A stretch of DNA of 64,000 bases from Thermoproteaceae archaeon (lineage in GTDB: Archaea > Thermoproteota > Thermoprotei > Thermoproteales > Thermoproteaceae): contig JAJHRB010000001.1 of the NCBI GenBank assembly GCA_020833025.1, positions 6,943 to 70,942 on the forward strand, read 5' to 3'. The notes under the pieces are model-generated. The model did not search any database. It saw only the letters and a program-made list of their open reading frames with translations, and was not told the DNA's origin. A program made the translations under genes and the position numbers. This document shows, piece after piece, positions 1-37,200 of the stretch; positions within the stretch are counted from its first letter, which is position 1; every line of letters begins with the position of its first letter.

Positions 1-62
1 TTTCTCACGACGCTAGACACGTCCTTGCAGATAACCGAGCCGCCAATCTTGATTACCATCAT
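1..62 (-). CDS. argB: [LysW]-aminoadipate/glutamate kinase (LysZ/ArgB), 5' part only, runs off the window
   Basis: Manual translation MMVIKIGGSVICKDVSSVVR has the amino-acid kinase KxGG motif; ATGA overlap with the argC stop. Confidence 0.8.
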   Translation of the reverse strand, partial: MMVIKIGGSVICKDVSSVVR

Positions 63-1123
63 AGCGGCGCCACAGGTATCTGACTGAGACCCTCGCCCTC
101 GGGAAAGCCCATCACTATGTTAAATGCTTGCACTGCCTGTCCCGCGGCGCCACGCACCAAGTTGTCAATTGCCGCGAATGTTATTACTCTGCTCGTGCGC
201 GGGTCGAGCTCGAATCCAACGTCCGCGACGTTTGTCCCCAGTACGTACTTGACGTTAGGGTAGTGCGACAGACCGAGCCTGTCCCTCACTACTCTAACGA
301 ACTTGGCGTTGCCGTAAAGCGCCCTGTAGTATTTCCACATGTCGACCTCCGAGGGCAGTTTATCGACGAAAACGTGGCCTGTCGTGAATATCCCGCGTAC
401 CAGGTCTACCGCGTGCGGCGTGAACGCAACTCTCACCTTCCTGCCTGCGAGCAAGCTGAGCTCTTGCTCTATCTCGGCGATATGGCGGTGGCGGGCGGGT
501 TCGTAGGGTCTCACGACGTACGTTCTGTAGCTGTGCAGGTCCACCACGGACCCCTCGGCGCCCGCCCCGCTTGAGCCTATCTTCGCGTCAATGACTGGCG
601 GCACGGCGCCTATCAGCCCGAACTTCGCCAGCGGCGCGAGCATCAGCACCGACGCCGTGGCCATGCAGCCGGGCACTGCAATGAGTCTTGCATTGACGAG
701 CTCGTCTCTGTGCAGCTCCGGCAGGCCGTACACGGCTCTCTCGAGGAGGTCCGGGTACGGGTGCGGGCCCGGCCACCCGTACCACTCCACGTACGCGTTC
801 GGGTCCTTCAGCCTGAAGTCGGCGCTGAGGTCCACCACCGTGATGCCTGACTCGTAGAGCTTGGGGGTCCACTTGACAGACTCGCCGTGTGGCAGCGCCA
901 GAAAGGCGGCGTCTGCCTTCAGCGCGGCGTCTAGCGAGGGCTCCACAAACCTCAGCTGGGTGAAGCCGCGCAAATTTGGGTGCACCCTGTAGACGTACTC
1001 GCCCTTAAACCTTCTCGACGTAGCGCACACTACCTCAACGCCGCTGTGCTGCAGTAATACCCTAAGCAGCTCGCCTCCCACGAATCCCGACGCTCCTATA
1101 ATGCAGACCTTGACGACCTTCAT
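59..1123 (-). CDS. argC: [LysW]-aminoadipyl/glutamyl-phosphate reductase (LysY/ArgC)
   Basis: GASGFVG Rossmann motif, PGCMAT catalytic Cys, GSSGAG, DNLVRGAAGQA. Confidence 0.93.
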   Translation of the reverse strand: MKVVKVCIIGASGFVGGELLRVLLQHSGVEVVCATSRRFKGEYVYRVHPNLRGFTQLRFVEPSLDAALKADAAFLALPHGESVKWTPKLYESGITVVDLSADFRLKDPNAYVEWYGWPGPHPYPDLLERAVYGLPELHRDELVNARLIAVPGCMATASVLMLAPLAKFGLIGAVPPVIDAKIGSSGAGAEGSVVDLHSYRTYVVRPYEPARHRHIAEIEQELSLLAGRKVRVAFTPHAVDLVRGIFTTGHVFVDKLPSEVDMWKYYRALYGNAKFVRVVRDRLGLSHYPNVKYVLGTNVADVGFELDPRTSRVITFAAIDNLVRGAAGQAVQAFNIVMGFPEGEGLSQIPVAPL

Positions 1124-1793
1124 ACTAGCCCTGCGATGAGTTCTGCCTCCTCTCTACTCTCAACCGGCGGCACGGGGTCGATATCTATTACACGCATATC
1201 GCCATTGTAATCCCCTAGCGTCACTCTCGCGTAGAGGAGGCCCAGGTGCGAGAGCGCGTCCGCGACGAGCCCCCTGGCGCTATTGATCGTTGCGAAGACC
1301 GACAGCATTCTGCTTGGTCTCGGCGCGATGACTGTCACTCTCGCGAGGGGATTGCGCATGTAAGCGCGATGCTCGAGCACGCTTTTCGCGCCCTCCATGC
1401 TTGTCACCGGACCGTCTAAGTTCAGCCTCCACGCAGTCAGCAACAGCCACGGCCCCCTCATATCGACCTTTTCGAGCGAGGCGTCTGCGCATACAACCGC
1501 ATACGGCGGGCCGAACTTCGGGAGCCAGCTCAGCCTGTTGACGGCCAGTAGAGATGCCACTGGCGGGTTTATGCTGCGCTTTGCCAGAAGCCCGTAAGCC
1601 GCTGCCACGTACGGGTTCCTGATCCTCACTACTGCCGTGCCCGGAATGCTTCTGACGGGCATCTCTGTCACGTTCAGCGTCACTGCCCTGAGGCCCCTCC
1701 GCGCCAGCGACTCAACTATGAGCCGGTCGGAAACAGTCGGGGTGTCTGTGATGATATATACTGCATCGTCGCCGCCCGTGGCCCCTGATTCAT
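1120..1793 (-). CDS. LysX/ArgX (RimK-like) ATP-grasp-related protein, short and divergent; the promoter-proximal AUG at 1793 joins the ORF only via a -1 shift at 1785-1782
   Basis: The frame is open upstream of the tracked GTG (1683) and reads VYIITDTPTVSDRLIVESLARRGLRAVTLNV, which resembles a LysX N-terminus; C-terminal VIDIDPVP resembles the ATP-grasp ExN strand; first gene before argC/argB. Confidence 0.55.
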
Positions 1794-1812
1794 GGCGGGT
1801 CGAGGAGGCGCG

Positions 1813-1821
1813 CTTTATATA
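1813..1821 (-). promoter_or_regulatory. TATA box of the lysX-like/argC/argB unit
   Basis: TATATAAAG on the minus strand, about 19 nt before the AUG at 1793. Confidence 0.6.
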
Positions 1822-1849
1822 GGTTGTGCTATTGGCTTAGCGCGGCAAG

Positions 1850-1857
1850 TTTAAAAA
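1850..1857 (+). promoter_or_regulatory. TATA box of the thrC/aspartokinase unit
   Basis: TTTAAAAA about 22 nt before the AUG at 1878 (leaderless spacing). Confidence 0.65.
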
Positions 1858-1877
1858 AGACGGGGACCTAAAACATT

Positions 1878-3031
1878 ATGGACGTGCCATCGGGGACGGC
1901 GCGCCGTACCTGAAATGTGTACTGTGCGGAGCTAGATACGAGCAGAACTACAGGCTGTACACGTGCCCCAGGTGCGGAGGCCTTCTTGAGGTGACCATCC
2001 CGCACAAATACTGGAGCCCGCGGGGCAGAGGCATCTGGCGGTATGCATCAATGCTGCCGCTAGGGAGCGGCATCTCGCTGGGAGAGGGCGGCACTCCGCT
2101 GGTTGAGTCGAGTCTGAGTAGTAACCTCTACATTAAGTTTGAAGGGACTAATCCCACCGGGAGCTTTAAGGATAGAGGAATGGCCCTTGGCGTTACAGTT
2201 GCGAGGGAGAGCAGGGCCGAGAAGGTGATAGTCGCGTCCACAGGAAACACTGCGGCGTCTGCCGCAGCGTATGCCGCGAGGGCTGGGCTGAAGTGCTACG
2301 TGCTGCTGCCCCGGGGCAACGTCGCGCGCGGCAAGCTCATACAGGCAGCACTTCACGGCGCTGAGATAATTATGATTAACGGCTTTTTCGACACTGCTCT
2401 CAGGTACGTGCTCGAGCACGGCACCAAGTACGCATATCCGCTGAACAGTTTCAATCCGTGGAGGCTGGAAGGCCAGAAGACAATTGCATTTGAGATATAC
2501 GAGGAGCTTGGATGTCCAGATTACGTAATAGTGCCCGTTGGAAATGCAGGCAACATCTCTGCAATATGGAAGGGGTTTAGAGAGCTGGGAGAGCTCGGTC
2601 TCTGCAGAAAGCTTCCTAGAATGGTAGGCGTGCAGGCAGAGGGCGCGGCGCCGCTTGCCGTGGCGTGGCAGAGAGGTCTCAAGAGCCCGCTATTTGTTGA
2701 CAAGCCCAAGACAATAGCAAGTGCAATTAGAATAGGCAGGCCGATTAACTGGCCCAAGGCAATGGCGGCAGTAGAGCAGTCAGGCGGCCTCTTCATCGCG
2801 GTTTCCGACAGCGAGATTGCCGAGGCTCAGAGGCTTCTGGCATCTAGAGACGGCATCGGGGCGGAGCCGGCGGGGGCTGCCTCCGTTGCAGCCGCGCTGA
2901 GGCTCAAGGTGAGCGGCACTGTAGTGGCCGTCGTCACGGGGCACGCACTCAAGGACCCCGACGTTATCGAAATAAGCGTCAGGGAGATAAAAGATTCAAG
3001 AGAGCTCCTCCTACTGCTGGAGGGAGCGTGA
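1878..3031 (+). CDS. thrC: Threonine synthase; the AUG at 1878 joins the ORF via a -1 shift at 1892-1895
   Basis: NPTGSFKDRG PLP-lysine motif, ASTGNT, VPVGNAGN; the Zn-ribbon CVLC..CPRC lies in frame upstream of the tracked GTG at 1991 with no in-frame ATG/GTG/TTG before it. Confidence 0.93.
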
Positions 3032-4026
3032 AACCCGTCGTGAAGATAGGAGGCTCTCTCCTTAAGAGCGCCGAGGATTTCGTCAGAGCTGCCCGCTTCG
3101 TAGTCTCACAGAGAGAGCCGCCGGTCGTGGTAGTCTCGGCGATGAAGGGCGTCACAGATGCCTTGCTCGAGCTTGAGAAGTCCAGAAGCATTTCGATCTA
3201 CTACGAAATCGCGCGGAGGCACGCCTCTGTTGCTGAAGCACTCGGCGTGCTTGAAGCCACGAGAGCACCGCTCAAGGAGCTGAAAGACGCGCTGAAAATG
3301 CCGAGAGAGGCTTGGACGCGCGATTACTTCGCCTCATTCGGCGAGAGACTCTCCGCGATAATATTACACGCCGTGTTGAGGAGGCTTGGCACTCCCGCAA
3401 AGCTATTCACGGCTCCGCTGCTCACAGATGACAATTACGGAAATGCAGAACCGCTAGCGCTTGAGAGTGCAGACGAAATAGCGGAGCCAGGGACTGTGGC
3501 GGTCGTCACGGGGTATATAGGCAGGAGCAAAGAGGGGAGGTTCACTACTGTTGGGCGGGGTGGCAGTGATTACGTGGCCACCTTCATCGGCAGGGAAATA
3601 GGCTCAAGGAGAGTCTCGCTAATAACGGAGGCTCTCGGTGTGATGACCGCAGACCCCAGAGAGGTTGAGGGTGCAGAGCCGCTCCCGCTGCTCTCGATTT
3701 ACGAGGCCCTTGAGGCCGCAAAGCTTGGCGTCAAACACTTCCACCCGCGAACGTTCGTGCCGCTGCTGGATGCAGCAAGCACAGTAGTTGAAGTGAGAAG
3801 CTATGAAAGCCGCGGGACGCTCATTGGACACTTCTACCCGCCGCCTCCCTGCAAGGTTGTTATAAGGTGCGAGGGAGGTAGTTACATCATAGGGCTGGCG
3901 GCGTACGAGCTAACAAAGCTCGGCGGCGTTCTACTGAGCAGGTATGCCGTAAGGCTAAACATGGCGCCGCGAGACGCTCACGAGCTCTTCATCAGGCCGC
4001 ACCTCAAGACGCTCTTCAAGCGGTAA
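3028..4026 (+). CDS. lysC: Aspartokinase with a short C-terminus
   Basis: VVKIGGS, VVVSAMKGVTD, SFGERLSA, GRGGSDY, MTADPR; GTGA overlap with the thrC stop. Confidence 0.88.
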   Translation: MKPVVKIGGSLLKSAEDFVRAARFVVSQREPPVVVVSAMKGVTDALLELEKSRSISIYYEIARRHASVAEALGVLEATRAPLKELKDALKMPREAWTRDYFASFGERLSAIILHAVLRRLGTPAKLFTAPLLTDDNYGNAEPLALESADEIAEPGTVAVVTGYIGRSKEGRFTTVGRGGSDYVATFIGREIGSRRVSLITEALGVMTADPREVEGAEPLPLLSIYEALEAAKLGVKHFHPRTFVPLLDAASTVVEVRSYESRGTLIGHFYPPPPCKVVIRCEGGSYIIGLAAYELTKLGGVLLSRYAVRLNMAPRDAHELFIRPHLKTLFKR

Positions 4027-4159
4027 TCCCTGCCCCTCAGGACTGGGCTGCCGGCCTTCAGCAGCGGCCCGCAGTGCTCGCCCAGGCCGTTTCCAAAATC
4101 CCAGCCGGAGGGACCAGCAAGGGCGGGGCGAGGGCGCCTTCTCTGGGACGCGGGAGCGT

Positions 4160-4198
4160 CTGCCCTTTAGGGCGGGAGGGGGATTGGCGGGACGTCAG
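4160..4198 (+). mobile_element. Orphan IS200/IS605-type right-end hairpin remnant
   Basis: CTGCCC-TTTA-GGGCGG hairpin followed by GAGGGG and then GTCAG, similar to archaeal IS605 right ends; no adjacent tnpA/tnpB. Confidence 0.45.
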
Positions 4199-4275
4199 TT
4201 CGTGGGTTCCTCCTCACGGGTCAGAACTAAAGACCCTCGTCACCCGAGAGCTCGCGCGCCGCTCCAAAAATTCAC

Positions 4276-4644
4276 TCACGACGCCTCCATTTTTCTTAGC
4301 AGTCTGAGCCACGTGGCAATGGACTCTCCCCCGGCCACTAGCTTGCCTTTAATAAGTCTGTACTGGCTGACGGCGCCCTTTTTCACTAGATACGCTGCAA
4401 ACATGTTGACCAAGACTTTTGCCTGACCTCTCCTCACAAGACCCTTGATGTACTCACTAGGATAGTCTCTGGCGACAGGATTTCCCTTTTCGGCTGCCTC
4501 CTTAGCGCGCAGTGCCAGAAGCTTGACGCCAACCTCCTTGAGCCATGCCTCAAATTTATCCAGCTCATCGCGGAACTCTCTTGCTATTTCTGAGCCGAGA
4601 AACTGGCTCCAGTACTGCCTTAGCTCACTTAGCGCTGACTCCAC
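4276..4644 (-). CDS. Hypothetical helical protein, 122 aa
   Basis: GTG start about 20 nt after TTTAAAAG; protein-like composition. Confidence 0.75.
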   Translation of the reverse strand: MESALSELRQYWSQFLGSEIAREFRDELDKFEAWLKEVGVKLLALRAKEAAEKGNPVARDYPSEYIKGLVRRGQAKVLVNMFAAYLVKKGAVSQYRLIKGKLVAGGESIATWLRLLRKMEAS

Positions 4645-4775
4645 GCTTCTCTGTGCGCGCTACTTTTAAACTTTGGCACTTAACGTGGCTCAAGCGGTGC
4701 GGCTCGCAGCACGGGGCGTCGTGTTATTACGTAGGCCTCAAGCGGCTGCCACGCGGTCGCACGAACGCCTAGGAG

Positions 4776-5318
4776 CTAGAAAAAAGAAGCATAGTACCCC
4801 ACTGCAATTTTCCTCGCCGCCTCCGCGGCGCACGAGGGGCAGACAAGAGCCATGCCGTGTCTCTTTAGCGTCGAGCCGCATTTAGGACACCGCGAGAGAA
4901 TAACGCCATAAGTGGGCCCGCGTATTGAAACTATTAGCGGGGGGCCGTGAGCTGAGACGACCCTCGCCCTTATGTAATCGCCGATGCCGAGCCTCCCGTC
5001 AGCCAAGAAGTGAGGCAGAATACCTGTAAACTGATACTTCAAGTCCACGGGCCCTCGCTTGCCCTCAACGGCGAAGCACTTAAGCTGGTACGCCCTCTTG
5101 CCCTTGCCGGTGACCTGGCAGTAAACTACCGCGCCGGGTTGCGGCAGCGGCGGGTTCCTTACAGGTCTTACCACTGCTGTATGAGATTTATCGTCATAAA
5201 GTGCTACACAAAGCGTGCATGCAATGTACTTGTAGCCGGCATAGTATGCCGAGCCCCTCACATCGTACTCCTCTGCATACGCGACAATCTCACCCGGCGT
5301 GACTACTGCACGCTTCAC
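4776..5318 (-). CDS. csl4: Exosome RNA-binding subunit Csl4
   Basis: VVTPGE N-terminus, S1 domain (GDYIRARV), C-terminal CPKC..CPSC Zn ribbon; start placed by TATA spacing. Confidence 0.85.
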   Translation of the reverse strand: MKRAVVTPGEIVAYAEEYDVRGSAYYAGYKYIACTLCVALYDDKSHTAVVRPVRNPPLPQPGAVVYCQVTGKGKRAYQLKCFAVEGKRGPVDLKYQFTGILPHFLADGRLGIGDYIRARVVSAHGPPLIVSIRGPTYGVILSRCPKCGSTLKRHGMALVCPSCAAEAARKIAVGYYASFF

Positions 5319-5371
5319 GCACAGGCTTGCGCCCATAAGATTAAGCTTTTTACCGCGCCGTACTGTACCTC

Positions 5372-5983
5372 GTGCTTGTTGAGCTGTCATTTAAGTTCAG
5401 CAGCGCGAGTGAGGTCGAGAAATTCTTGTCATTTCTCGAGAGACACGTGAGGAATGTTCGATATTCCGTGAGCGCGCGTCTGACGCACGTTTACGTCCAG
5501 CTGCAGGGAGAAGGCAAGGAGCTTCAGGACGCAGTTGCGCTGGTGAAAATGCTCGCAGGTCTCGCGAGAGCTCGGCGCGCCGTTAGACGGGTGCCGCTGT
5601 TGGTACTGTTCAGAGACGCTGAGCTGGCAAGGCCTGTGCCGCCGGACGCGATAGCCGACGCGCTGACGTTATCCGGCATTCCGTCGAGAGTGCGTGGCAG
5701 CTTCCTCGAGACAGAGGCAGACTACGAGAAGGTCCTACAAGTGGCTGAGGAGCTTTCTAGGCTCTACAAGATCTCCGAGAGGTACCCGATAACGCCACAC
5801 GCAAAGAGAATTGTCGTGGTGCACGCGTATGCTACAGGCAAGCCGGTCGACGCGTCAATAGAGGAGCTAGTAAGTGCCGGGTTGCTAAATCGCGGCGCGG
5901 CTATCAGCCTTAGATACCCCATTGAGGAGACAAAGAGGCGCTTGCTCAGTGCTGCTAGCGTTAGGCAGGGGCGGTCGGCTTAG
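5372..5983 (+). CDS. DUF2067-like conserved crenarchaeal protein
   Basis: Position between csl4 and rpoL, length, LTLSG..S..RG motif. Confidence 0.6.
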   Translation: MLVELSFKFSSASEVEKFLSFLERHVRNVRYSVSARLTHVYVQLQGEGKELQDAVALVKMLAGLARARRAVRRVPLLVLFRDAELARPVPPDAIADALTLSGIPSRVRGSFLETEADYEKVLQVAEELSRLYKISERYPITPHAKRIVVVHAYATGKPVDASIEELVSAGLLNRGAAISLRYPIEETKRRLLSAASVRQGRSA

Positions 5984-6010
5984 TTTAAATACTGCCGCGT
6001 AGCCGCGTGC

Positions 6011-6304
6011 GTGCTTCAGCTTGAAATACTGAAACTTGACGACAAGTACTTGGAAATCAAGGCCCGGGGAGACACGTACACTCTATTCCCGCCTATCGTA
6101 GAGTATCTGTCTCGCGACCCGGACGTGGAGTACGTGCAGTTTGACGTTGACCACCCGCTACTCGAAAATGTACATTTTAAGGTAAAGGTTAGAAGCGGCA
6201 ATCCCCTTAAGGCCGTGGAGAGGGCCGTGAGGGCCATACTGCAGGATCTAGAGGAGCTCGAGAGAGGATTCCTCGCGGAGAGTCGCCAGGCCGGGAGCAT
6301 GTAG
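6011..6304 (+). CDS. rpoL: RNA polymerase subunit Rpo11 (L)
   Basis: GDTYTL..P, DHPL motif, size. Confidence 0.9.
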   Translation: MLQLEILKLDDKYLEIKARGDTYTLFPPIVEYLSRDPDVEYVQFDVDHPLLENVHFKVKVRSGNPLKAVERAVRAILQDLEELERGFLAESRQAGSM

Positions 6305-6325
6305 AGAGCCCCGGCCGCCGCCGTT

Positions 6326-6994
6326 ATGATGCGCCTAGTACTGGCAGAGGCCTCGCTCGAGCTCGTGCCGCCAGAAATACGGAGCCACCCAGCAATAATA
6401 GCCGATGCCAGGAGGCGGGGCAGGAGGCCGGAGGAGATGCTACTCGACCGGGCCCGGCACCATCCGGCAATGCTGGCACTTAAGGACTCTCTCAGGCGGG
6501 GGAGGCCGGACATAGTGCACCAGGCATTACTCGTGTTCCAGTATAGCCTCCTGAATAGGCGCGGGCTGGGCAGAGCATACGTCCACACGCGCGATGACTA
6601 CGTTATCGTGATCCAGCCGGAAACGAGAATGCCCCGGAATTACAATAATTTCATTGCATTAATCGAGCAACTCTACGCCATTGGCAGGGTCCCGCCCCGA
6701 GGGAAGCCTCTCATCGAGCTTCAGAGAAAGGCCCTGCAGTCGCTGCTCAGAGAGCTCGGAAACCGCTGGATCGTGCTTCACGAGAATGGCGTGAAGGTGT
6801 CTCTGGCTGAAATTGGCAAAGCGCTTCTGAGCTCTGTCGTCGTGATCGGCGGCTTTCCGCACGGAGACTTCTTAAATAAGTGGGTCATCGAAGCGGCCGA
6901 AGCCGTGTACAGGCTAGGCGACGAGGTCATGGATGCGGCGCAGGTGATCTGCAAGGCCGTCACTGCCGCAGAGACCGCCGCCGGCCTTCTCTAA
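6326..6994 (+). CDS. nep1: 16S rRNA pseudouridine N1-methyltransferase Nep1 (SPOUT)
   Basis: LAEASLELVP, RGRPDIVH, RMPRNY, IGGFPHGDF. Confidence 0.92.
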   Translation: MMRLVLAEASLELVPPEIRSHPAIIADARRRGRRPEEMLLDRARHHPAMLALKDSLRRGRPDIVHQALLVFQYSLLNRRGLGRAYVHTRDDYVIVIQPETRMPRNYNNFIALIEQLYAIGRVPPRGKPLIELQRKALQSLLRELGNRWIVLHENGVKVSLAEIGKALLSSVVVIGGFPHGDFLNKWVIEAAEAVYRLGDEVMDAAQVICKAVTAAETAAGLL

Positions 6995-7002
6995 CACTAG
7001 CC

Positions 7003-7782
7003 ATGTCCGTGGAATTCCTGGTATATCTGAAGCGGAAGGGGCGCTGGCAAGAGCTAGCGAGATATGTGGAGCAGATCGGTGTGCCGTGCGTTCTCGACGT
7101 GAGCCATCTCGACACGTCGCGCTCGCCGATAACAACTGCGGTGGAGATAGAAGATGCACTACTCGAGAGCAGAATTGACGCGCTGGCTCTGCCGAGAGTC
7201 GGCGTGAGCGAGCTCGACTGGTACATCATGCTGGCAGACGCACTTGGTACGACAAGGCTTGTAATACCACCTGCACCCACAATAGACGATATAGCTGCGG
7301 TGTATGACAGGGCTGTGGGACATGGTATGCACGTTAACTGGATTTACGGAATTCAGCCGCTTGCGAGCATAGACGACGTCGAGAGAGTGGCCCGCGAGGT
7401 GAGGCACACAGCGGCGAGAATAACGTACGACCCGGTCAAGGCGAGAGGCACGAAAGAGATTTACAAGACTATAGTAGCGCTGAGCGGGTACATAAGAGAA
7501 ATATATATGTCGAACAGACGCGGAGGGCGCAGCCCGCGCCTCCCGCCATTTGACCCCTCAGGCAGGGTAAACTTTGCTGAGATTATGCAAATATTGCACT
7601 TGATAGGCTGGGAGGGCAAGCTTACCATTAGGCAAGCTCCTGCGTACTTCAGCGAGCTGGAGGTTCAAATTAAAATAGGCATGGAGGTTCTCGAGAGCAC
7701 AAAAAGCTCCGGCGCCTCTAAAGTAGTGCGGAGACGGGTGTCGGCGATACTCGCCGAGCTTATGTCTCGAGGAGCTCCCTAA
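7003..7782 (+). CDS. Xylose-isomerase/AP-endonuclease-2-like TIM-barrel protein, divergent
   Basis: ATG at 7003; YDP, RLPPFDPSGRVNF and GWEGKLTI match this fold's C-terminal pattern. Confidence 0.55.
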   Translation: MSVEFLVYLKRKGRWQELARYVEQIGVPCVLDVSHLDTSRSPITTAVEIEDALLESRIDALALPRVGVSELDWYIMLADALGTTRLVIPPAPTIDDIAAVYDRAVGHGMHVNWIYGIQPLASIDDVERVAREVRHTAARITYDPVKARGTKEIYKTIVALSGYIREIYMSNRRGGRSPRLPPFDPSGRVNFAEIMQILHLIGWEGKLTIRQAPAYFSELEVQIKIGMEVLESTKSSGASKVVRRRVSAILAELMSRGAP

Positions 7783-7843
7783 GTCCACTTGAGCGCCGCG
7801 GCGGGCAGGCCCCGCGCGACTTGCACACATGTTCAGGACTCCG

Positions 7844-7946
7844 TGTCAGATCAGAGGTCCTATGTCAGAGATCCCGTGCCGGGGGGTCCTATGCGCAGGG
7901 GCACACACCCATTCATAGGACCTCTGGCACAGAACCTCTGACATAG
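7844..7946. repeat. Array of about 14-15 bp repeats (consensus TGYCAGAGGTCCTA): three direct and two inverted copies
   Basis: Perfect 13-bp inverted repeat 7852-7864/7914-7926 and 11-bp inverted repeat 7860-7870/7936-7946. Confidence 0.8.
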
Positions 7947-8006
7947 CATTCTTGACGCAAGAATCTGGAAATCCGGTTTCCCGTTCAGGCCTGCCGCCGC
8001 AGTGAC

Positions 8007-8475
8007 ATGAAAGCATACAGAATGCTCGCGCTGCGCTACGACGTCCTAGAGCTGCCGCCCGAGGCGCAGCAGAATTCCCGCAGTTACTCAAGGTCCTGGC
8101 AGAGTTCCGAGCGCGGGCCTCCGAGCAGGCCGAAAATGGCGGCAGAACGCAACTGCCAGAGAGAGGGGCCCAGCCGAGGCGTCTCGCAGAGAAATTTTGT
8201 CCACGCGTACAACGCGCTGGAGCGACTGAGAGGGCGCGTCATAAGGCGCGGCAAGAGGGACTTATCGAGGGTCTCGCAGGCGGCACGGAGTGCCGTGCGT
8301 TGAGGCGAGGCTCTACAGCACGGTGTGCCCGAAATGCGAGGCGAAAATGGTGGAGCTGCAGAACAAGCGAGCTGGGTGCATGAAATGCTGCCTCAAGACA
8401 AACCAAGAATGAAAGTGCCCATCATGTGGGCGGTGAAGAGATTTGGCGGGCTGCTCAAAACGGCTCAGGCCTAAA
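8007..8475 (+). pseudogene. tnpB: Degraded IS200/IS605 TnpB-like (Zn-ribbon) gene
   Basis: Pieces in different frames: MKAYRMLALRYDVLELPPEAQ, QLLKVLAEFR..LAEKF, VHAYNALERLRGR and STVCPKCEAKM..CMKC; frameshifts and a large internal deletion. Confidence 0.6.
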
Positions 8476-8836
8476 ACCACCTCTTTTTTCTTCGCCGTGC
8501 CGGATGCTTACTAGCCCGGCAGTTCTCGCAATCTCATGAAAGCACGGCCGAGAGAGCGCTCCCTGTCAGGCGTGGGGTCCCGCCCGGCAGCGCCGCCTAG
8601 CGAGCGGGGCTCCGGCCCCCGGAGTGCGGTAGGGGTTGAAAGGGGGCACGGACACTACTACCCCGGCTGGCAGAATTGCGCTATCGCGAAGTTTGCTCTG
8701 TTTTCTTATCGCTACGCGACTGTTTTACATTTCCTAGCAAGGCTACTTGAAATTTAACAGAGCACATGTGAGAAGATGTAACTGAGTAAGTTAACAATGT
8801 ACAAATTAATGGCCAAGTTTGACGAGAGGCTTGCAG

Positions 8837-8853
8837 TTAAAGTTAACTTTAAA
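8837..8853 (+). promoter_or_regulatory. Perfect 16-bp palindrome TTAAAGTTAACTTTAA overlapping the argG TATA box (TTTAAA, 8848-8853)
   Basis: Read directly from the sequence; about 22 nt before the AUG at 8875. Confidence 0.65.
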
Positions 8854-8874
8854 TTCATATTAACGAGAGCGAAC

Positions 8875-10091
8875 ATGGCGAGCAGCGCCTCGGGGCGAGC
8901 AGAATAGTACTTGCCTACTCGGGAGGTCTGGACACCACGGTAGCAATAAAGTGGCTAAGGGAGAAGTTCAATGCAGAGGTTTATACTGTCACTGTTGACG
9001 TCGGGCAGGAGGAGGACTTTGCAGAGATTGAGGAGAGGGCATACAAGGCAGGCGCAGTGCAGCACTTCTACATAGATGCAAAGAGAGAATTCGCCGAGGA
9101 ATACATATTTCGCTCTATTTTAATGAATGGAATGTATGAAGGGCTATACCCACTGGGGACCGCTCTGTCTAGGCCCCTAATAGCTAAGAGGGTTGTCGAG
9201 ATAGCCAGAAGGGTCGGAGCAGACGCAGTGGCGCACGGGTGCACCAGCAAGGGGAACGACCAGGTCAGGTTCGAGCTGACAATTAAGGCGCTCGCGCCTG
9301 ACCTGAAAATCATAGCGCCGGCGAGAGTGTGGGGCATGACGCGCGCTGAGGAGCTTGAGTACGCCAAGCGTCACGGACTGCCTGTGAGCGCCGAGCACAG
9401 GAAATTCAGCATTGACGACAATCTTTGGTCGAGGTCAGTAGAGGGGGGCCCGCTGGACGACCCGGCCGCGGAGCCCTCGGAAGAGGTCTTCAAGTGGACG
9501 GTCGCGCCAGAGAAGGCGCCAGACAAACCGACGTATCTGACGCTAGAATTTAGAGACGGGCTCCCAATTGCGATAAACGGCGAGAGAATGGACCCGCTCG
9601 CACTGGTGACCGCGCTTAACGGCATCGGCGGTGCAAACGGTATCGGCAGGATAGACCACATGGAGAGCAGGGTAGTGGGGCTTAAGAGCCGGGAGGTATA
9701 CGAGGCGCCAGCAGCCGTGATACTGTACCACGCGCACAGAGACCTCGAGAAGCTCGTGCTCACGCCGCGCGAGCTGAGATTTAAGCACGGGATTCTTGAC
9801 ACCACGTGGTCGGACCTAGTGTATCAGGGCCTGTGGGTCGAGCCGCTGCGCGTGGCGCTTGAGAGGGCAGCAGAGGAGATGGAGCGGTGGGTGACCGGCA
9901 CGGTGAGAGTAAAGCTCTACAAGGGCGCCCTCTGGATAGTGGGGAGGGAGTCGCCGTATAGTAGCTACAGCAGAGAGCTCGCCGACTACAATAGAGGGTG
10001 GTATCCGAGCGACGAGGAGGCCAGGGGATTCATTAAAATGTGGGGCCTCCACTCGCTGATCGCCATCAGGAGGCGCCGGCTGGCCGTCTAG
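8875..10091 (+). CDS. argG: Argininosuccinate synthase; the AUG at 8875 joins the ORF via a -1 shift at 8892-8895
   Basis: The essential [14 protein letters not shown]-loop lies in frame upstream of the tracked GTG at 9057 with no canonical in-frame start before it; [29 protein letters not shown]. Confidence 0.94.
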
Positions 10092-10345
10092 CCGGCGCGA
10101 AGAGGAAAGCACCAAAACTGGGCCGGGGAGGGAAAACAGGCGAGGTTTCAGTACCGCTGCCGGAGCGCAACTCGCGGCAACTGCCGCTAACACTCACGGC
10201 GATAATATAATGAGGGAATTGAGGGAGGGCGTTGCATGCCTCAAGAAGTCCGCGCGAAAGACGCCCCGGGCTTTCTGGCCCCGGAGGGCAGCGAGAGTGA
10301 GCGTGTCCTGCCACTCTCAAGCCTCGCTAGCTGTTTTAACTGTGG

Positions 10346-11563
10346 TCATGAGCGCGACCCCGAGCCCTCAAAGAAGTACAGCACAGCGGAAGGCCATGAC
10401 TTTGCTACTGGTGACACGTCGTCCACGCACCCTCCCACTATCTTGAGCGCCGCGAGCGCCATTAGGCCAATTCTGTGATCGCCGTGTGAGGGCAACACGA
10501 CGCCGCCTCTCCTGAGGGGCCCCCTCACGTGCAGTGTGCCGTCCTTGTACTCAGCATATGCGCCGAGCCTCCGCAGCACGTCGATGACAGAATTTATCCT
10601 GTCGCTCTCCTTAAACCGCAAGTGCTCCACCCCGCGGATTACTGAGAGGTCCTCTACCGTCGCGGCTGCCAGCGCCAGCGGCATGACTAAGTCAGTATTG
10701 TGCCTTAAATCTGCGTCAACTCCCCTGGCAAGCGCGCCGCTCACGCGCACGACGCCTCCTGCCTCGCTGATCCTGGCGCCCATTTTCTCCAGCGCCTCTA
10801 AGAGGGGCCTGTCGGTGCTGGCAACCGTGCACGCTATCTCCACGGTACCCCCAGTGGCGAGCGCCGCCACCGCGAGGAATGCTGCCAGGCTGAAGTCGCC
10901 AGGCACTTTAATGCTGCCGGGGCTTCTCAGCGTGCCGGAGACCTCCACGACGCTCCCCACGCTGACTCTCGCGCCAAAGGCCTTGAGAGCCTCGGCCGTC
11001 GCCTCGACAAAGCTCCAAGATCGCCTCTCGCCGAGGGGCTCCACGACTCCGCTTCCGCACAGCGCGGCGAGGTACATGAGGCCTGAGATGTATTGCGACG
11101 AGATGTCAGCCCTCACGCGCACGTGAAAGCTCTCGAGGCGCCTGCCCTCAACCACCACAAGGCCGGGCGCCCAGACGACTCTGGCAAGACCCCTCAAGGC
11201 GTCTACTAGCTCTCCGAGAGGTCTCTTTAGGAGAGTACCGCCGTATAGTATTGCAGTGATGCCTGGCACGCCTGTGTAAATGGCCGTGGACGCGCGCAGT
11301 ACGAACCCGCTCTCCATGACGCTAAAGGCTCTGAGGCGCTCCGGCTCTCTCCTATCAATCATCACGCTGGCTCCCTCCAGTCTCACGCTCGCCAGCGGTT
11401 TTACTGCCCTCAACGCTGCGATCACGTCATCGCTCAGCTCGACCCCGTCAATTATAGTCTCCCCGTCAGCAAGCGCGGCGGCAAGGATAAAACGCTGGGA
11501 GTACGGCTTCGACGGCGGCGCCGGGAATCTACCCCCGAGAGTGCCTCGCTCAATGCAGAACAT
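10346..11563 (-). CDS. aroA: 3-phosphoshikimate 1-carboxyvinyltransferase
   Basis: [32 protein letters not shown]. Confidence 0.92.
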
Positions 11564-12581
11564 GAACTACGTAGGAGGTGGCCCTTGCAACATCCTCAGG
11601 CCTGACCCTCTCCAGCACCCACCTCCCCAGCCTGACCACTAGCGGCATGTAGATGTACTCGCCGCGTCTCTTTTTGTCAAATTTTATCAGCGAGAGCGCG
11701 CCGGCAAGCTGCTCCCTCGACGCACGCGCCCGCGTTGGAAGCCCGAGCACCTCAAGCAGCGACCTCACGTCTGCAACAACGTCCTCGCGCAAGTAGCCCA
11801 GGTCGCGCGAGAGGTGGAGCTCTGCAACTATTCCGAGAGACACAGCCTCGCCGTGAAGGAGGCCCAGCACGCGCTCGAGAGCGTGTCCTACTGTGTGGCC
11901 TACATTCAGAACCTGCCTTATTCCCCTCTCCTCAAACTCGTCGATCTCAACCACTCTAGCCTTTATCTGAAGCGAGCGAAAAATTGCCGTCTCGAGCGCC
12001 CTCTCCTCCCGCCTCAGCAGCGCGTCCACGCCCTGCTTTATCCACGCGTAGAGCTCCTCGTCGAGCGCCACGCCATACTTCACCATTTCGGCAAACGCCG
12101 ACCGGTACGCCCTATCGGGCAGCGTGTCTAGCCATGACGTGTCGCAGAATATTAGCGAGGGCTGATAGAAGACGCCTATGAGGTTCTTGATGCTGCCGAC
12201 ATCGACCGCGCCCTTGCCTCCCAGTGCCGCGTCAATCATAGCGAGAAGCGTCGTGGGAACGCTCACGAGTCTAAGTCCCCTCATGTAGGTCCCAGCCGCA
12301 AAGGTAGCGACGTCGAGCAGCGCGCCCCCGCCCACGGCCACAAGGGCTGTTGACCTGTCGGCGCCTGCGCGCGCGAGAAATTCATATATCTTGAGCAGCG
12401 TGTCGAAACTCTTGACACCCTCGCCGCCCTTCAGTGCCAGCACGGGGACGCCGGGTATTGGCGGCCTGAGTCCCTCTTCGATTACCAGCACGGGTCTCTC
12501 TACCAGCTCTGAGTACGGGAGATCTCTCCCCACGACGACCTCGGTCATCCCGCGGCTATGTCTGTAAGCGAACCGCTTCAT
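11550..12581 (-). CDS. aroB: 3-dehydroquinate synthase
   Basis: [43 protein letters not shown]. Confidence 0.94.
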
Positions 12582-13522
12582 CGCAGTCTCACGAGCTCCT
12601 CGGCCCTCGCCGCCACGCTCTCTGGCGTGAGGCCGAAGTGGTGGTAAAGATCGGCAGGGCTCTTTGCGCTCCTGCCATAGGACTTGAGGCCCATGATGGC
12701 GATTTTCGTCGGCCTTGTCTGGGACAGATACTCGGCGACGGCGGAGCCGAAGCCGCCGTGAACCATGTGCTCCTCGACCGTGACAATAGCGCCGGCTTTG
12801 GTCGCGTATTTCTCCACCGTGGAGTAGTCGAGGGGCTTAACAGTGGGGAAGTGCACTACGGCGGCCGATATTCCCCGGTCTTTTAGCAGCTGTGCTGCGT
12901 CAATGGCGCACGGCAGCATGATGCCAGTTGTAAATATCGCAACATCGCTCCCCTCTCTGATAACATACGCCCTGCCCACCTCGAACTTGTCGTAGAGTGA
13001 ACAGGTAACCGGGACGTGAAAATCCCTCCCGACCCTTATGTAGGCAGGCCCCCTTATTGCTGCCGATGCCATGACCGCCCTGTATACCTCGCACGAGTCC
13101 GCCGGGACTATTATGGTGAAATTAGGGAGAACTCTAAAGAGTGCGACGTCCTCCAGCGCTTGGTGTGACGGGCCGTCGTACGCGTCAGAAAATCCTGCGT
13201 GAGTCCCAACGAGCCTGACGGGAAGCGCGAGCCTGTCAACGGCGTTTCTGGCCTGCTCCCAGCCCCTTGCTAGGAACGCCGCGAACGTCACGGCGTACGG
13301 CATAAAGCCGGCCAGCGCTAAGCCGGCGGCGATCCCGACCAGCGCCTGCTCCGCAATGCCAACGTTGAAGTATCTCTCCGGGTGTCTCTCAGCGAAGAGC
13401 CTGGCCCTTGTGGGCTCCCCCGTATCTGCGACGAGCACGACAACATCCCCCCTTAAATCTCCGAGATCCGCCAGCGCGCGCCCCAGCGCCTCCCGGGGCG
13501 TTAGCTCTTCTAGCCCCGACAT
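12578..13522 (-). CDS. tktC: Transketolase, C-terminal subunit
   Basis: [32 protein letters not shown]. Confidence 0.92.
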
Positions 13523-14342
13523 GCTAGAGACTGTGCGTACTGCAGGGCCTCGTCTCTCGATAGTCTCTGCCGGGGAGTTCCCTCGATGCCCGGCACTCCC
13601 CTCCCCCTCGCAGTTCTGGCAATAATCACTGCGGGTCTTGTGCTGCTCTCGGCCCTTTCAAGCGCCGAGACTATCTGCTCGTGGTCGTGCCCGTCGGTCT
13701 CGAGTACTTCAAAGCCGAGCGCTCTGAGCCTGCCCGGCAGGTCCCCCTTGCGCAGTACCTCCTCAACGCGCCCGTCGAGCTGTATGCCGTTGTAGTCCAC
13801 TATCGCGAGGAGATTAGTCAAGTTGTAGTGTGCCGCCGCGGCGAAGGACTCCCAGCTTAGCCCCTCGTCGAGCTCTCCGTCGCCAGTTATTAAGTACACG
13901 CGACCTCTGTTGCCCCTCAGCTTGAGGCCCAGGGAGAGGCCGACCGCCATGCTTATTCCCAGAGCCAGCGAACCTGAGTTGGGCACGTCGACAAACGGCG
14001 TGTCTGCCTCGGGGTGGTTCTGGAGGCGGCTGCCCAAGCTACCGGACTCCCTCAGCTCGTCGAGCGCTAGATAGCCCATTGCCGCGGCGAGCGCGTAAAT
14101 CGCGTGCACCGCGTGACCCTTAGACAGCACTAGGTAATTCCTGTTGCCCACGCCATTTGCTAGATTGAACTTCACTCTGCCAGTGCCGTAGAGCGCTACC
14201 AGTATGTCGAGCACCGAGAGAGACGACCCGAGGTGCATCCCGGGGTCGTAGCTCGCCATTAGGAGCAGGTATAGTCTCGCCCTGCACGCCAGCTCTCTCA
14301 GCTGCTGAACCCCGACCTCTCTAGTGCTGAGTACCCCTGCAT
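13510..14342 (-). CDS. tktN: Transketolase, N-terminal subunit; the AUG at 14342 joins the ORF via a -1 shift at 14337-14334 or 14313-14310
   Basis: HLGSSLS, LSKGHA, GSL..G, TPP motif GDGELDEG..N; the conserved first helix LRELACRARLYLLL is in frame upstream of ATG 14259 with no canonical start before it. Confidence 0.9.
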
Positions 14343-14434
14343 GGCCTGAAAGGGGGTCCGGTATTTAAGTAATCAGCACGTGCGCGCCACGCGCGCGGGT
14401 TTTTGTCCTTATAAGCAGACTAGGTAGCGGCCGC

Positions 14435-15415
14435 GTGGAGCGCTTGTTGAGAAACGTCGTGGAGGTAGTGACGCCCGAGGAGTTCTCCAGGCTGGGAGGC
14501 GGCGTGGCGTACCTCGGCTTCGAGCCGACCTGGCCAATACACGTTGGGTGGCTCGTGTGGGCTTTCAAGCTCGCAGAGCTCAAGGAAGCCGGCTTCGACG
14601 TGGTGCTGCTCGTCGCGACGTGGCATGCGTGGATAAATGACAAGGGGTCCGTGGAGGAGCTGAGGGAGCACGGCCGTAAAATAAAGTCATTTATCGAGAA
14701 AATTAGCAATTTCAAATATGTCAATAGCGACGACATTGTCAGCGACCCGAAGTACTGGGAGCTGGTGGTCAGGGTGGCGAAGGTGACCTCTCTGGCGAGA
14801 GTGAGGCGCGCGATACCAATAATGGGCAGGCAGGCCGAGGAGGTCATGCTCGACTTCTCGAAACTGCTGTACCCGGTCATGCAGGTCGCCGACATGCTCT
14901 ACCTTGGTGTCGACGTGGCGGTAGGGGGGCTCGACCAGCGTCGCGCTCACATGCTGGCAAGGGATGCGGCGGAGAGACTCGGCCTCAAGAAGCCGGTAGC
15001 CCTTCATGTGCCCGTGATCACCTCGCTCTCTGGCGTTGGGAGAATGGAGGGCATTCACGGAGAGCTTGACGAGATGTACGCAATGTACAAAATGAGCAAG
15101 TCGAGGCCGAGTAGCGCAATATTCGTCACGGACTCCGATGAGGAGATTCGCAAGAAGGTCTGGCTCGCGTACTGCCCGCCGAGGGAGACAAGGTTCAACC
15201 CTGTGTTTGAGATCGCAGCATACCTCCTCATCCCATACGCCGGGCCTCTCGAGGCAGGCGGGCGCCGCTACGAGGACCCGCGCGCGCTTGAGGGAGACTA
15301 CAGGAGCGGTGCCATCGATCCCAGGACTCTTAAGGAGGCCGTGGCGTCCGGCCTCATATCTTTATTCTCCAAGCTTAGGAGCTGCGCCGTTGGCAAGCCC
15401 GGCACAGCGGCATGA
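14435..15415 (+). CDS. tyrS: Tyrosine--tRNA ligase
   Basis: YLGFEPT, HVGW (HIGH-like), YPVMQVAD, GGLDQR, KMSKS. Confidence 0.95.
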   Translation: MERLLRNVVEVVTPEEFSRLGGGVAYLGFEPTWPIHVGWLVWAFKLAELKEAGFDVVLLVATWHAWINDKGSVEELREHGRKIKSFIEKISNFKYVNSDDIVSDPKYWELVVRVAKVTSLARVRRAIPIMGRQAEEVMLDFSKLLYPVMQVADMLYLGVDVAVGGLDQRRAHMLARDAAERLGLKKPVALHVPVITSLSGVGRMEGIHGELDEMYAMYKMSKSRPSSAIFVTDSDEEIRKKVWLAYCPPRETRFNPVFEIAAYLLIPYAGPLEAGGRRYEDPRALEGDYRSGAIDPRTLKEAVASGLISLFSKLRSCAVGKPGTAA

Positions 15416-15458
15416 TGCATTATAAGTTCAATAATGGTGTGCTACAATTCGCCACGAA

Positions 15459-16103
15459 ATGTTTAGATGCCAATCTAACTGTGCACTCTGCTGCAGAGTC
15501 AGCCCCGTGACCGTGCTGCCGCACGAAGTTTACGTGCTCCAGAGGCACGCGAGCGAGCTCGGCGTTAGAGCAGTTTTCACGCCTGCGTACAGAATTGCCG
15601 AGCTCAAGTCGGGCATGAGAATTGCCTTGAGCTACTTAATGCAGCTGGACGAGGAGGGAAAGTGTCCGTTCTTAATGGGCGTTAAGTGCGCAGTCCATGA
15701 CCTCTACAAGCCGCTGACGTGCCGTGCATTCCCCTACCTGCCGAGAGTAATAAAGTACGAGTTACTACCTCACTTGAGGGAGATAAGAATCAACGTCAAG
15801 TTTGTGATGTCAACGCTGTGTCCTGTCGTCAGAAGGGACCTCACGCCAGCCGCTGCCGCCATGATGTCTGACGTGAGCGTTGCCGCGGAGTATGCGCCAC
15901 ACGAGGTCAGGGCGGCTGTAGAGACCCTCAGAGGCAGGTATCTCTACGTTAAAATGCTTAACGAGCTCTGGAAGCGGGAAGTTGTCGAGCTTGACGAGGA
16001 GGGCAAGTATCTGTTCTTCCCCATAGTTAACGGCTTTGTGTTCCTGCGGCGCTTTTATCCAGACCTAACGCTGGACAAGCTCGTGCGAGCCCTCAGCGAG
16101 TAG
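15459..16103 (+). CDS. YkgJ-family cysteine-cluster (Zn/Fe-chelating) protein
   Basis: CQSNCALCC, CPFL..C, KPLTCRAFP. Confidence 0.8.
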   Translation: MFRCQSNCALCCRVSPVTVLPHEVYVLQRHASELGVRAVFTPAYRIAELKSGMRIALSYLMQLDEEGKCPFLMGVKCAVHDLYKPLTCRAFPYLPRVIKYELLPHLREIRINVKFVMSTLCPVVRRDLTPAAAAMMSDVSVAAEYAPHEVRAAVETLRGRYLYVKMLNELWKREVVELDEEGKYLFFPIVNGFVFLRRFYPDLTLDKLVRALSE

Positions 16104-34999: not shown

Positions 35000-36954
<1,955 letters not shown>

Positions 36955-37200
36955 GAGCTGCGCGCCCAGCGCGCAAGGACCTTCTACCGGACCTCCTGCA
37001 GCAGCATATTAATGGACGTCAAAATATATACTCTGCGACAAGCCCCGTGCTTGTGAATACAATAATCGAGGAGCTCAGGAAGGTCTTCGGAAGCGGCGAC
37101 GAGGGAAGGCTTGCAGAGCGGCTGATCTTGGCATACAAGGACGGCGGCACGCGCGCTGTGAGGCTCGTGCTTCACGAATATCTCAAGACACTCGGCGTCA

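Follow-up and report, generated by a model that had tools for sequence, protein, structure and literature searches.

Bacterial attenuation (trpL, thrL, pheL, hisL, ilvL and leuL) relies on a leader open reading frame (ORF) containing codons of the regulated amino acid, the sensor being a ribosome that awaits a scarce aminoacyl-transfer RNA (tRNA), and in the T-box riboswitches of Firmicutes every biosynthesis or synthetase gene answers to the charging state of its cognate tRNA. No archaeal equivalent of either mode of control is known that would adjust the making of amino acids to the charging of tRNA. Here we analyse a window of 64,000 nucleotides (nt), meaning the whole stretch under study, from a Thermoproteaceae archaeon, a hot-spring Pyrobaculum (GCA_020833025.1, contig JAJHRB010000001.1, positions 6,943-70,942; coordinates below are those of the window), in which four amino-acid biosynthesis operons are headed by short leader ORFs out of frame with the first enzyme: thrC, argG, an aromatic operon beginning with the transketolase N half (tktN), and an operon beginning with a LysX/ArgX-like gene (lysX-like). 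Each leader holds a glycine codon GGG preceded by G (written G_GGG), followed by a codon for an amino acid linked to the pathway. We consider it likely, from comparison of these leaders, that -1 slippage of tRNA-Gly from the ribosomal peptidyl (P) site at a starved, or hungry, codon in the aminoacyl (A) site acts on such leaderless messenger RNAs (mRNAs) as an attenuation-like switch.

The leaders share with bacterial attenuation the codons of the regulated amino acid and, if such slippage operates, the waiting ribosome as sensor. They are likewise multivalent for branched pathways, as in the thrC leaders of the Pyrobaculum group, which have Ile and Thr sites; the thrL leader of E. coli contains Thr and Ile codons. 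They differ in that the output would be a change of reading frame rather than a choice between terminator and antiterminator hairpins, with no conserved RNA structure found in the thrC leaders, in carrying one cognate codon per slippery site rather than runs of codons, in the predicted joining of the leader N-terminus to the enzyme, and in their host, an archaeon with leaderless mRNAs. In T-boxes, by comparison, a structured leader RNA itself binds the uncharged tRNA, whereas here the ribosome would be the sensor, and neither a structure (thrC leaders) nor an Rfam match (positions 1-16000) was found.

The +1 frameshifts of prfB (release factor 2, RF2) and antizyme resemble the proposed event in their early slip at a slippery P-site codon, in a rate set by slow A-site decoding and in forming a feedback loop. 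Unlike the leaders described here, they shift in the +1 direction, depend on an A-site stop codon (RF2) or polyamines, use a Shine-Dalgarno-like or pseudoknot stimulator, and each control one gene rather than a regulon. In Saccharolobus solfataricus fucA1, a crenarchaeal -1 ribosomal frameshift joins two ORFs into one enzyme, as would occur here, although a single glycosidase gene is concerned. Its slip takes place at a classical heptamer site in mid-gene and is not known to be linked to amino-acid supply. Up to 2021, fucA1 was the only -1 frameshift reported in Archaea (PMC1616953, PMC8211752). Leftward (-1) slippage at hungry codons involves one tRNA and a vacant A site, and needs no downstream stimulator (Gallant and Lindsley 1992, as cited in PMC8211752). 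Known examples are translational errors, laboratory observations and a few incidental cases; the phenomenon is not known as a conserved, regulon-wide switch that provides the sole route to an enzyme. No description of leaders of the present kind was found in full-text literature searches or in the 2021 review of archaeal recoding (PMC8211752).

Anatomy of the four leaders

In all four operons an A/T-rich box lies 26-28 nt upstream of an ATG that opens a short out-of-frame ORF, and the conserved enzyme is encoded in the -1 frame relative to that ORF (Table 1). A/T enrichment at -29 to -22 before starts is the signature of leaderless genes in the host genome, and the spacing of the four leaders agrees with it. 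Every leader contains NNG GGG, in the form TCG GGG three times and CAG GGG twice across the four operons. The preliminary description of this window had reported precisely this layout (TATA box, out-of-frame ATG, NNG GGG and an enzyme in the -1 frame), and each element proved to be where it had been placed.

The enzyme frames have no canonical start of their own near the leader: in thrC the first one (GTG 1991) lies past the conserved zinc ribbon, and in tktN the first lies at 14259. The arrangement shares with a canonical -1 frameshift the two ORFs overlapping in the 0 and -1 frames and a -1 product that lacks its own start, and with attenuation a short leader ORF with codons of the regulated amino acid upstream of biosynthetic genes. 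Genes within the operons overlap through ATGA, GTGA and ATGA.

Table 1. Coordinates, strand and description of the leaders, their signals and the genes they precede
Feature	Position	Strand	Description
TATA box, LysX/ArgX-like operon	1821-1814	-	TATATAAA; 28 nt 5' of leader ATG
Leader ORF, LysX/ArgX-like operon	1793-1716 (ATG 1793-1791)	-	ATG AAT CAG GGG CCA ... TAG; 25 codons; 0 frame
Slip site, lysX-like leader	G_GGG 1785-1782, then CCA (Pro) 1781-1779	-	CAG GGG CCA = 1787-1779
Divergent LysX/ArgX-like ATP-grasp protein	1120-1785	-	-1 frame, open 1836-1120; first canonical in-frame start 1683
argC/lysY	59-1123	-	TIGR01850, 399.7 bits; ATG overlaps preceding stop (ATGA)
TATA box, thrC operon	1850-1858	+	TTTAAAAAA; 28 nt 5' of leader ATG
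Leader ORF, thrC	1878-1913	+	ATG GAC GTG CCA TCG GGG ACG GCG CGC CGT ACC TGA; MDVPSGTARRT*; 11 codons
Slip site, thrC leader	1892-1898 (G_GGG 1892-1895, then ACG, Thr)	+	TCG GGG ACG = 1890-1898
Threonine synthase with N-terminal zinc ribbon	1892-3031	+	-1 frame of leader
Aspartate kinase	3028-4026	+	GTG overlaps thrC stop (GTGA)
TATA box, argG	8848-8855	+	TTTAAATT; 27 nt 5' of leader ATG
Leader ORF, argG	8875-8907	+	ATG GCG AGC AGC GCC TCG GGG CGA GCA GAA TAG; 10 codons
Slip site, argG leader	8892-8898 (G_GGG 8892-8895, then CGA, Arg)	+	TCG GGG CGA = 8890-8898
Argininosuccinate synthase	8892-10091	+	-1 frame; first canonical in-frame start 9057, deep inside enzyme
TATA box, aromatic operon	14368-14362	-	TTAAATA; 26 nt 5' of leader ATG
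Leader ORF, aromatic operon	14342-14298 (stop 14300-14298)	-	ATG CAG GGG TAC TCA GCA CTA GAG AGG TCG GGG TTC AGC AGC TGA; 14 codons
Slip site 1, aromatic leader	14331-14337	-	G_GGG then TAC (Tyr)
Slip site 2, aromatic leader	14307-14313	-	G_GGG then TTC (Phe)
Aromatic operon	10346-14337	-	-1 frame of leader; genes joined via overlapping stops/starts
Transketolase N half (tktN)	to 13510	-	
Transketolase C half	12578-13522	-	
aroB	11550-12581	-	
aroA	10346-11563	-	

Conservation and codon identity across genomes

The 5' ends of orthologues were taken from 40 related genomes, and the out-of-frame ATG, the G_GGG run and the following codon are present in 17-23 other genomes from Pyrobaculum and a sister genus. 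Cultured strains with finished genomes are among them, three of which are P. islandicum, P. neutrophilum and P. oguniense. The out-of-frame ATG, G_GGG and a cognate codon are kept together in 22/22 genomes for thrC, 22/22 for argG, 23/23 for the aromatic operon and 21/22 for the lysX-like gene. The preliminary description had named orthologues with in-frame starts, or with a random codon after the run, as evidence that would count against it; neither pattern emerged in Pyrobaculum and the sister genus.

In thrC, all 22 genomes have the ATG, then 1-5 codons, then TCG GGG ACR, with the enzyme in -1; the slip region TCGGGGAC is invariant among them, and twelve relatives carry a second site, G_GGG ATT (Ile), upstream of the Thr site. 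In argG, NCG GGG CGA is found in 22/22 genomes. The argG leader ATG of most Pyrobaculum lies inside the end of lysW, whose stop closes the ArgG frame 8 nt past that ATG, so that entry into the ArgG frame is limited to a five-codon window, the one that holds G_GGG. In the host genome, unlike most relatives, no lysW lies upstream of argG (8500-8875). Within the 350 nt upstream of argG, the sequence is GC-rich at about 8560-8650, and an ORF of 36 codons begins at 8797 in the leader frame; an Rfam match is absent from 8500-8875.

The leaders with several sites carry exactly the end-product set of branched pathways. The aromatic leader of the relatives reads ATG .. CAG GGG TAY .. TCG GGG TGG .. GAG GGG TTT .. 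stop, with the Tyr site in 23/23, the Trp site in 20/23 and the Phe site in 17/23, the host genome having Tyr and Phe only. The lysX-like leader reads CTG GGG CCA GAG GGG AAA GTG GGG CGA (Pro, Lys, Arg) in Pyrobaculum and GGG AAA .. GGG CCA .. GGG CGA in the sister genus, an identical set with the Lys/Pro order permuted, and its TATA box TTTATATA is kept at the same position in all relatives. CAG GGG CCA (Pro), given in the preliminary description as this leader's site, is indeed present, but that picture has to be widened: the host copy retains Pro only, and the relatives have Pro, Lys and Arg.

Codons after the run vary synonymously (TAC/TAT, TTT/TTC, ACA/ACG, ATT/ATC), which alters the residue in the enzyme frame and keeps the leader amino acid. 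The codon preceding GGG may be TCG, CAG, GAG, CTG, GTG, CCG, GCG, ACG, AAG or ATG, its final G being invariable. Because change after the run is synonymous only, the G before GGG is constant, and site order is permuted with the set kept, we conclude that what selection maintains, in the leader frame, is G_GGG together with its cognate codon.

Stop codons a few bases from the leader ATG close the enzyme frame, and a canonical start before the conserved protein core is missing in 16-19 of about 22 species per gene. Beyond this point, the enzyme frames are intact and conserved over their full length, with no internal stops, the breaks being confined to the first 2-11 codons. In the few species with in-frame variants of ileS, argG or thrC, the N-termini are similar in length to those expected from the shift. 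Ordinary in-frame starts are seen in a third genus of the family to which the window belongs.

In a second family of the order, argG was examined in eight genomes from three genera, the layout being read from alignments only. There the start codon follows a TTATTAA box by 27-28 nt, again in a frame that requires a -1 shift, and the leaders read, genus by genus, CTG GGA CGA, CTG GAA CGA CGT TGA and NTA AAC CGG. Three different re-pairable P-site codons (G_GGA, G_GAA and A_AAC) are thus each followed by an Arg codon. The thrC gene of this family begins ATG GAA ACC/ACA, with the enzyme in -1. Beyond the order, argG has a plain in-frame ATG. Leaders of the second family sometimes open with GTG.

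The crude gene set of the host was also scanned, blind to function, for a TATA-like box at the right distance, an ATG, a leader ORF of at most 40 codons, G_GGG within 12 codons and a long coding ORF in -1, and genes were named through NCBIfam, Pfam or by eye. The scan yielded 18 leaders, 16 of which head amino-acid biosynthesis or aminoacyl-tRNA synthetase genes. The codon after G_GGG is CTC in ilvB and in the gene for 2-isopropylmalate synthase (leuA), AAA in that for homocitrate synthase, ATC in those for citramalate synthase and IleRS, CGA in carA, TGT (Cys) in a pyridoxal phosphate (PLP) enzyme gene, TGG in trpE, trpD, a TrpB-like gene and the TrpRS gene, and TTT in the gene for prephenate dehydratase (pheA); the four window genes (ACG in thrC, CGA in argG, TAC/TTC in the aromatic operon and CCA in the lysX-like gene) complete the 16. 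A second TrpB-like gene, with no clear TATA box, also has TCG GGG TGG.

A cognate codon follows the first G_GGG in 15 of these 16 leaders, where 1.08 would be expected (P = 4.5e-21); of 1e6 permutations, none attains that number. The preliminary description had held that the match of codons to pathways exceeds chance in the window and had proposed a search for the same in other biosynthetic operons; the genome-wide test bears out the claim, and the pattern extends to Leu, Ile, Lys, Arg, Cys, Trp and Phe genes as well as to TrpRS. As a control, G_GGG occurs in 15/27 start-less genes that need a -1 shift, and GGG_G in 0/19 that need +1 (P = 5e-5). Start-less candidates without GGGG (DAHP synthase, ribosomal protein P0, GltB-like, MiaB-like and others) were found to have ordinary starts and were set aside.

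Two loci of the host genome merit further description. The ilvB leader (contig C116, + strand, 10478) reads ATG CCG GGA GTA TCT TCG GGG CTC, with a G_GGA-Val site upstream of the G_GGG-Leu site, and G_GGA may also be a slip site in the window's genus. On contig C19 (+ strand, 17616), a perfect TATA box precedes a 25-codon Lys/Glu-rich ORF (MSAKKEKKEAKEAKKEAKKEEKKKK*) and a 146-codon ORF in the -1 frame.

Proposed mechanism and competing explanations

On a leaderless mRNA, the 5'-terminal AUG would open the short leader ORF, out of frame with the enzyme, and 2-11 codons in, peptidyl-tRNA-Gly would occupy the P site on a GGG preceded by G. If the A-site codon, which specifies an end product of the pathway, is read fast, the ribosome would keep the leader frame and reach a stop after 3-25 codons, and no enzyme would be made. 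If the cognate aminoacyl-tRNA is scarce, the A site would stay vacant and tRNA-Gly could re-pair one base back, after which a new GNN codon would be read and the full enzyme made, the downstream genes following through overlapping stops and starts. Where a pathway is branched, a leader with several sites would respond to a shortage of any one product and so work as an OR gate (Tyr/Trp/Phe, Pro/Lys/Arg and Ile/Thr). The preliminary description had already proposed that end-product starvation leads to -1 slippage, and comparison of sequences supports this as far as it goes; we infer both the slip on the ribosome and the rise of its rate under starvation, and hence the regulatory step.

Several properties of the sites are consistent with this scheme. 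At every NNG GGG site in the two genera a step of one base upstream gives perfect re-pairing in the P site. In the A site the codons (ACG, CGA, TAC, TTC, CCA and others) do not allow re-pairing, and the sites are therefore not classical tandem-slippage heptamers: only the P-site tRNA can re-pair, from GGG to GGG. The post-slip A-site codon is always GNN. Slip sites lie at codons 2-7, with one at codon 11, so early that the ribosome would still be at the 5' end of the leaderless mRNA. A tRNA-Gly(CCC) gene is present in the host genome; the ARAGORN census, at 13-18 tRNAs, is incomplete in this intron-rich lineage, and for this reason tRNA gene counts were not used. Among the invariant hungry codons are rare synonyms, namely CGA (2%, the rarest Arg codon), CCA (9%) and AAA (17%), which would make sensitive sensors; TGT is rare too (2-17%).

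RNAalifold on 21 thrC leaders, the only set folded, gave no conserved downstream structure (consensus -1.29 kcal/mol, no covariation), and no Rfam family matched window positions 1-16000 at the gathering threshold. Such absence of structure and of Rfam matches fits structure-independent, one-tRNA slippage at hungry codons. A terminator/antiterminator pair is likewise not seen as a conserved structure in the thrC leaders, where the leader overlaps the enzyme coding sequence itself. A G-quadruplex formed by the G runs was rejected as a general explanation, thrC and argG having a single run.

Other observations weigh against hungry-codon slippage. The hungry codons CTC, ACG, TAC and TTC are common in the host genome. 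Among 376 ordinary leaderless genes G_GGG is not avoided within the opening 12 codons (0.75% vs 0.74% per codon), nor are rare codons avoided after in-frame G_GGG (20.4% vs 19.1%, P = 0.14), and because neither the motif nor the rare codons after it are depleted, the motif alone cannot be strongly slippery. An extra factor must play a part, be it proximity to the 5' end, depth of starvation or some other component. In the Trp and Cys leaders the -1 frame reads GTG directly after the site, so that an ordinary GTG start is possible for these genes. The host lysX-like leader has a Pro site only, and its link to the pathway is assumed, since Pro would fit only if ornithine is the source of proline. 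Finally, ileS (IleRS, contig C50, - strand) is an ambiguous case: in twelve relatives a further ATG, 7 nt upstream, is in frame, the sister genus has an in-frame ATG that overlaps the leader stop as TGATG, and two Pyrobaculum species have a plain in-frame ATG only.

The ileS genes of many Pyrobaculum display two ATGs 7 nt apart, one in frame and the other opening the leader (ATG GGG ATY), together with two overlapping TATA-like boxes about 7 nt apart upstream of them. These dual boxes may represent a constitutive promoter and a starvation-gated one.

Some of these same features are those expected of a stalling leader peptide without any frameshift, in which a ribosome paused at the cognate codon would sense the amino acid and alter the stability or accessibility of the mRNA, and the enzyme would be started independently, either from a non-canonical codon or through re-initiation past the leader stop. 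A short leader with cognate codons is the hallmark of attenuation, and the GTG just downstream of the site in the Trp and Cys genes and the TGATG overlap of sister-genus ileS would suit such a model. It leaves no role, however, for the strictly kept G before GGG in a codon otherwise free to vary at its first two positions, and in most species the enzyme frames of thrC, argG, the aromatic operon and the lysX-like gene have no ATG, GTG or TTG between the upstream stop and the conserved core; nor were alternative RNA structures found in the thrC leaders. We regard this explanation as improbable. Non-canonical in-frame codons at the ArgG N-terminus (ATA, GTA, ATC and ATT) were also considered as starts and rejected: they vary as ordinary coding positions do, none being conserved as a start.

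The conserved G run could instead reflect transcriptional slippage, in which RNA polymerase adds a G to the G4 run and the resulting G5 mRNA puts the ATG in frame, yielding the identical protein with no ribosomal shift. Four Gs are far shorter than known slippage-prone runs, and this reading leaves unexplained both the cognate codon after the run (15/16) and its presence in the second family behind the non-homopolymeric G_GAA, G_GGA and A_AAC, which renders it decidedly unlikely. An equally faint prospect is a constitutive frameshift, that is, a real -1 slip at a fixed rate that sets low expression or adds a few N-terminal residues without sensing. Conservation of the frame layout and of the slippery site would follow from it, but it offers no reason for the match of codon to pathway, for the Tyr/Trp/Phe and Pro/Lys/Arg leaders, or for the restriction to amino-acid genes. 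Artefact or decay, meaning G5 misread as G4 in a draft metagenome-like assembly (the host genome is a 126-contig draft) or frameshift mutations in decaying genes, is practically discounted, since more than 20 other genomes share these G4 runs and frames, among them independently sequenced, finished single-contig genomes of cultured strains, a conservation that excludes a G5 sequencing error, and since the enzyme frames are intact apart from their first 2-11 codons.

Returning to hungry-codon slippage, we lean by a little towards a broader proposal, namely that in the Thermoproteales it forms a regulon-wide sensor of at least 11 amino acids (Thr, Ile, Leu, Lys, Arg, Pro, Cys, Trp, Tyr, Phe and probably Val), also placed on some synthetases, which would apply OR logic over branched end products. 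Lineages could then exchange one slippery codon for another (G_GGG, G_GGA, G_GAA and A_AAC), with the cognate hungry codon under selection.

If the proposal is true, a hyperthermophilic lineage uses the reading frame itself as the archaeal counterpart of attenuation and T-boxes, on mRNAs without any 5' leader able to fold into a riboswitch or attenuator. Hungry-codon frameshifting, mainly seen as a translational error, would gain a natural and essential physiological use, many -1 recoding events would be added to the single archaeal case, and one codon change should suffice to re-address a sensor to another amino acid. Genes of this kind would then be mis-annotated in public records, where their N-termini are inconsistent and the LysX/ArgX-like gene is listed as 'hypothetical', and gene callers and pseudogene filters would keep erring on them.

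Gene identities and neighbouring genes

NCBIfam confirms the identities of thrC, argG, the N and C halves of transketolase, aroB, aroA, argC and aspartate kinase. For the lysX-like protein, sequence searches of Pfam, NCBIfam and PDB gave no match. Its AlphaFold model, of medium confidence (predicted local distance difference test, pLDDT, 71.8), is closest in Foldseek to the ATP-grasp enzymes ArgX (3VPC) and LysX (template-modelling (TM) score 0.70, E 1e-9), and the label is therefore plausible at the level of the fold. The protein is about 60 residues shorter than LysX and its gene adjoins argC/lysY; judging by the model, the product may be a reduced LysW ligase. In public Pyrobaculum records the length of this 'hypothetical' protein ranges from 148 to 230 residues through differing N-termini, the starts differing by up to 80 residues.

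The transketolase C half (13500-13525, - strand) has an in-frame start, ATG TCG GGG CTA, that contains the hexamer of the leaders. This is probably a coincidence, as a -1 slip there would enter no useful frame.

The preliminary description was also right that other genes of the window start normally: those for GlyRS, TyrRS, ATP synthase A and probable RNA polymerase subunits have in-frame starts behind TATA boxes. The TyrRS gene (14409-15415, + strand) diverges from the aromatic leader at a distance of about 90 nt and has an ordinary leaderless GTG start. It carries no Tyr-sensing leader, and the device is found only on some synthetases (TrpRS and perhaps IleRS). Crenactin and arcadin-4, cytoskeleton genes typical of Pyrobaculum, lie next to each other at 35000-39579 (+ strand; NCBIfam 704 and 929 bits) and likewise have ordinary in-frame starts behind TATA boxes.

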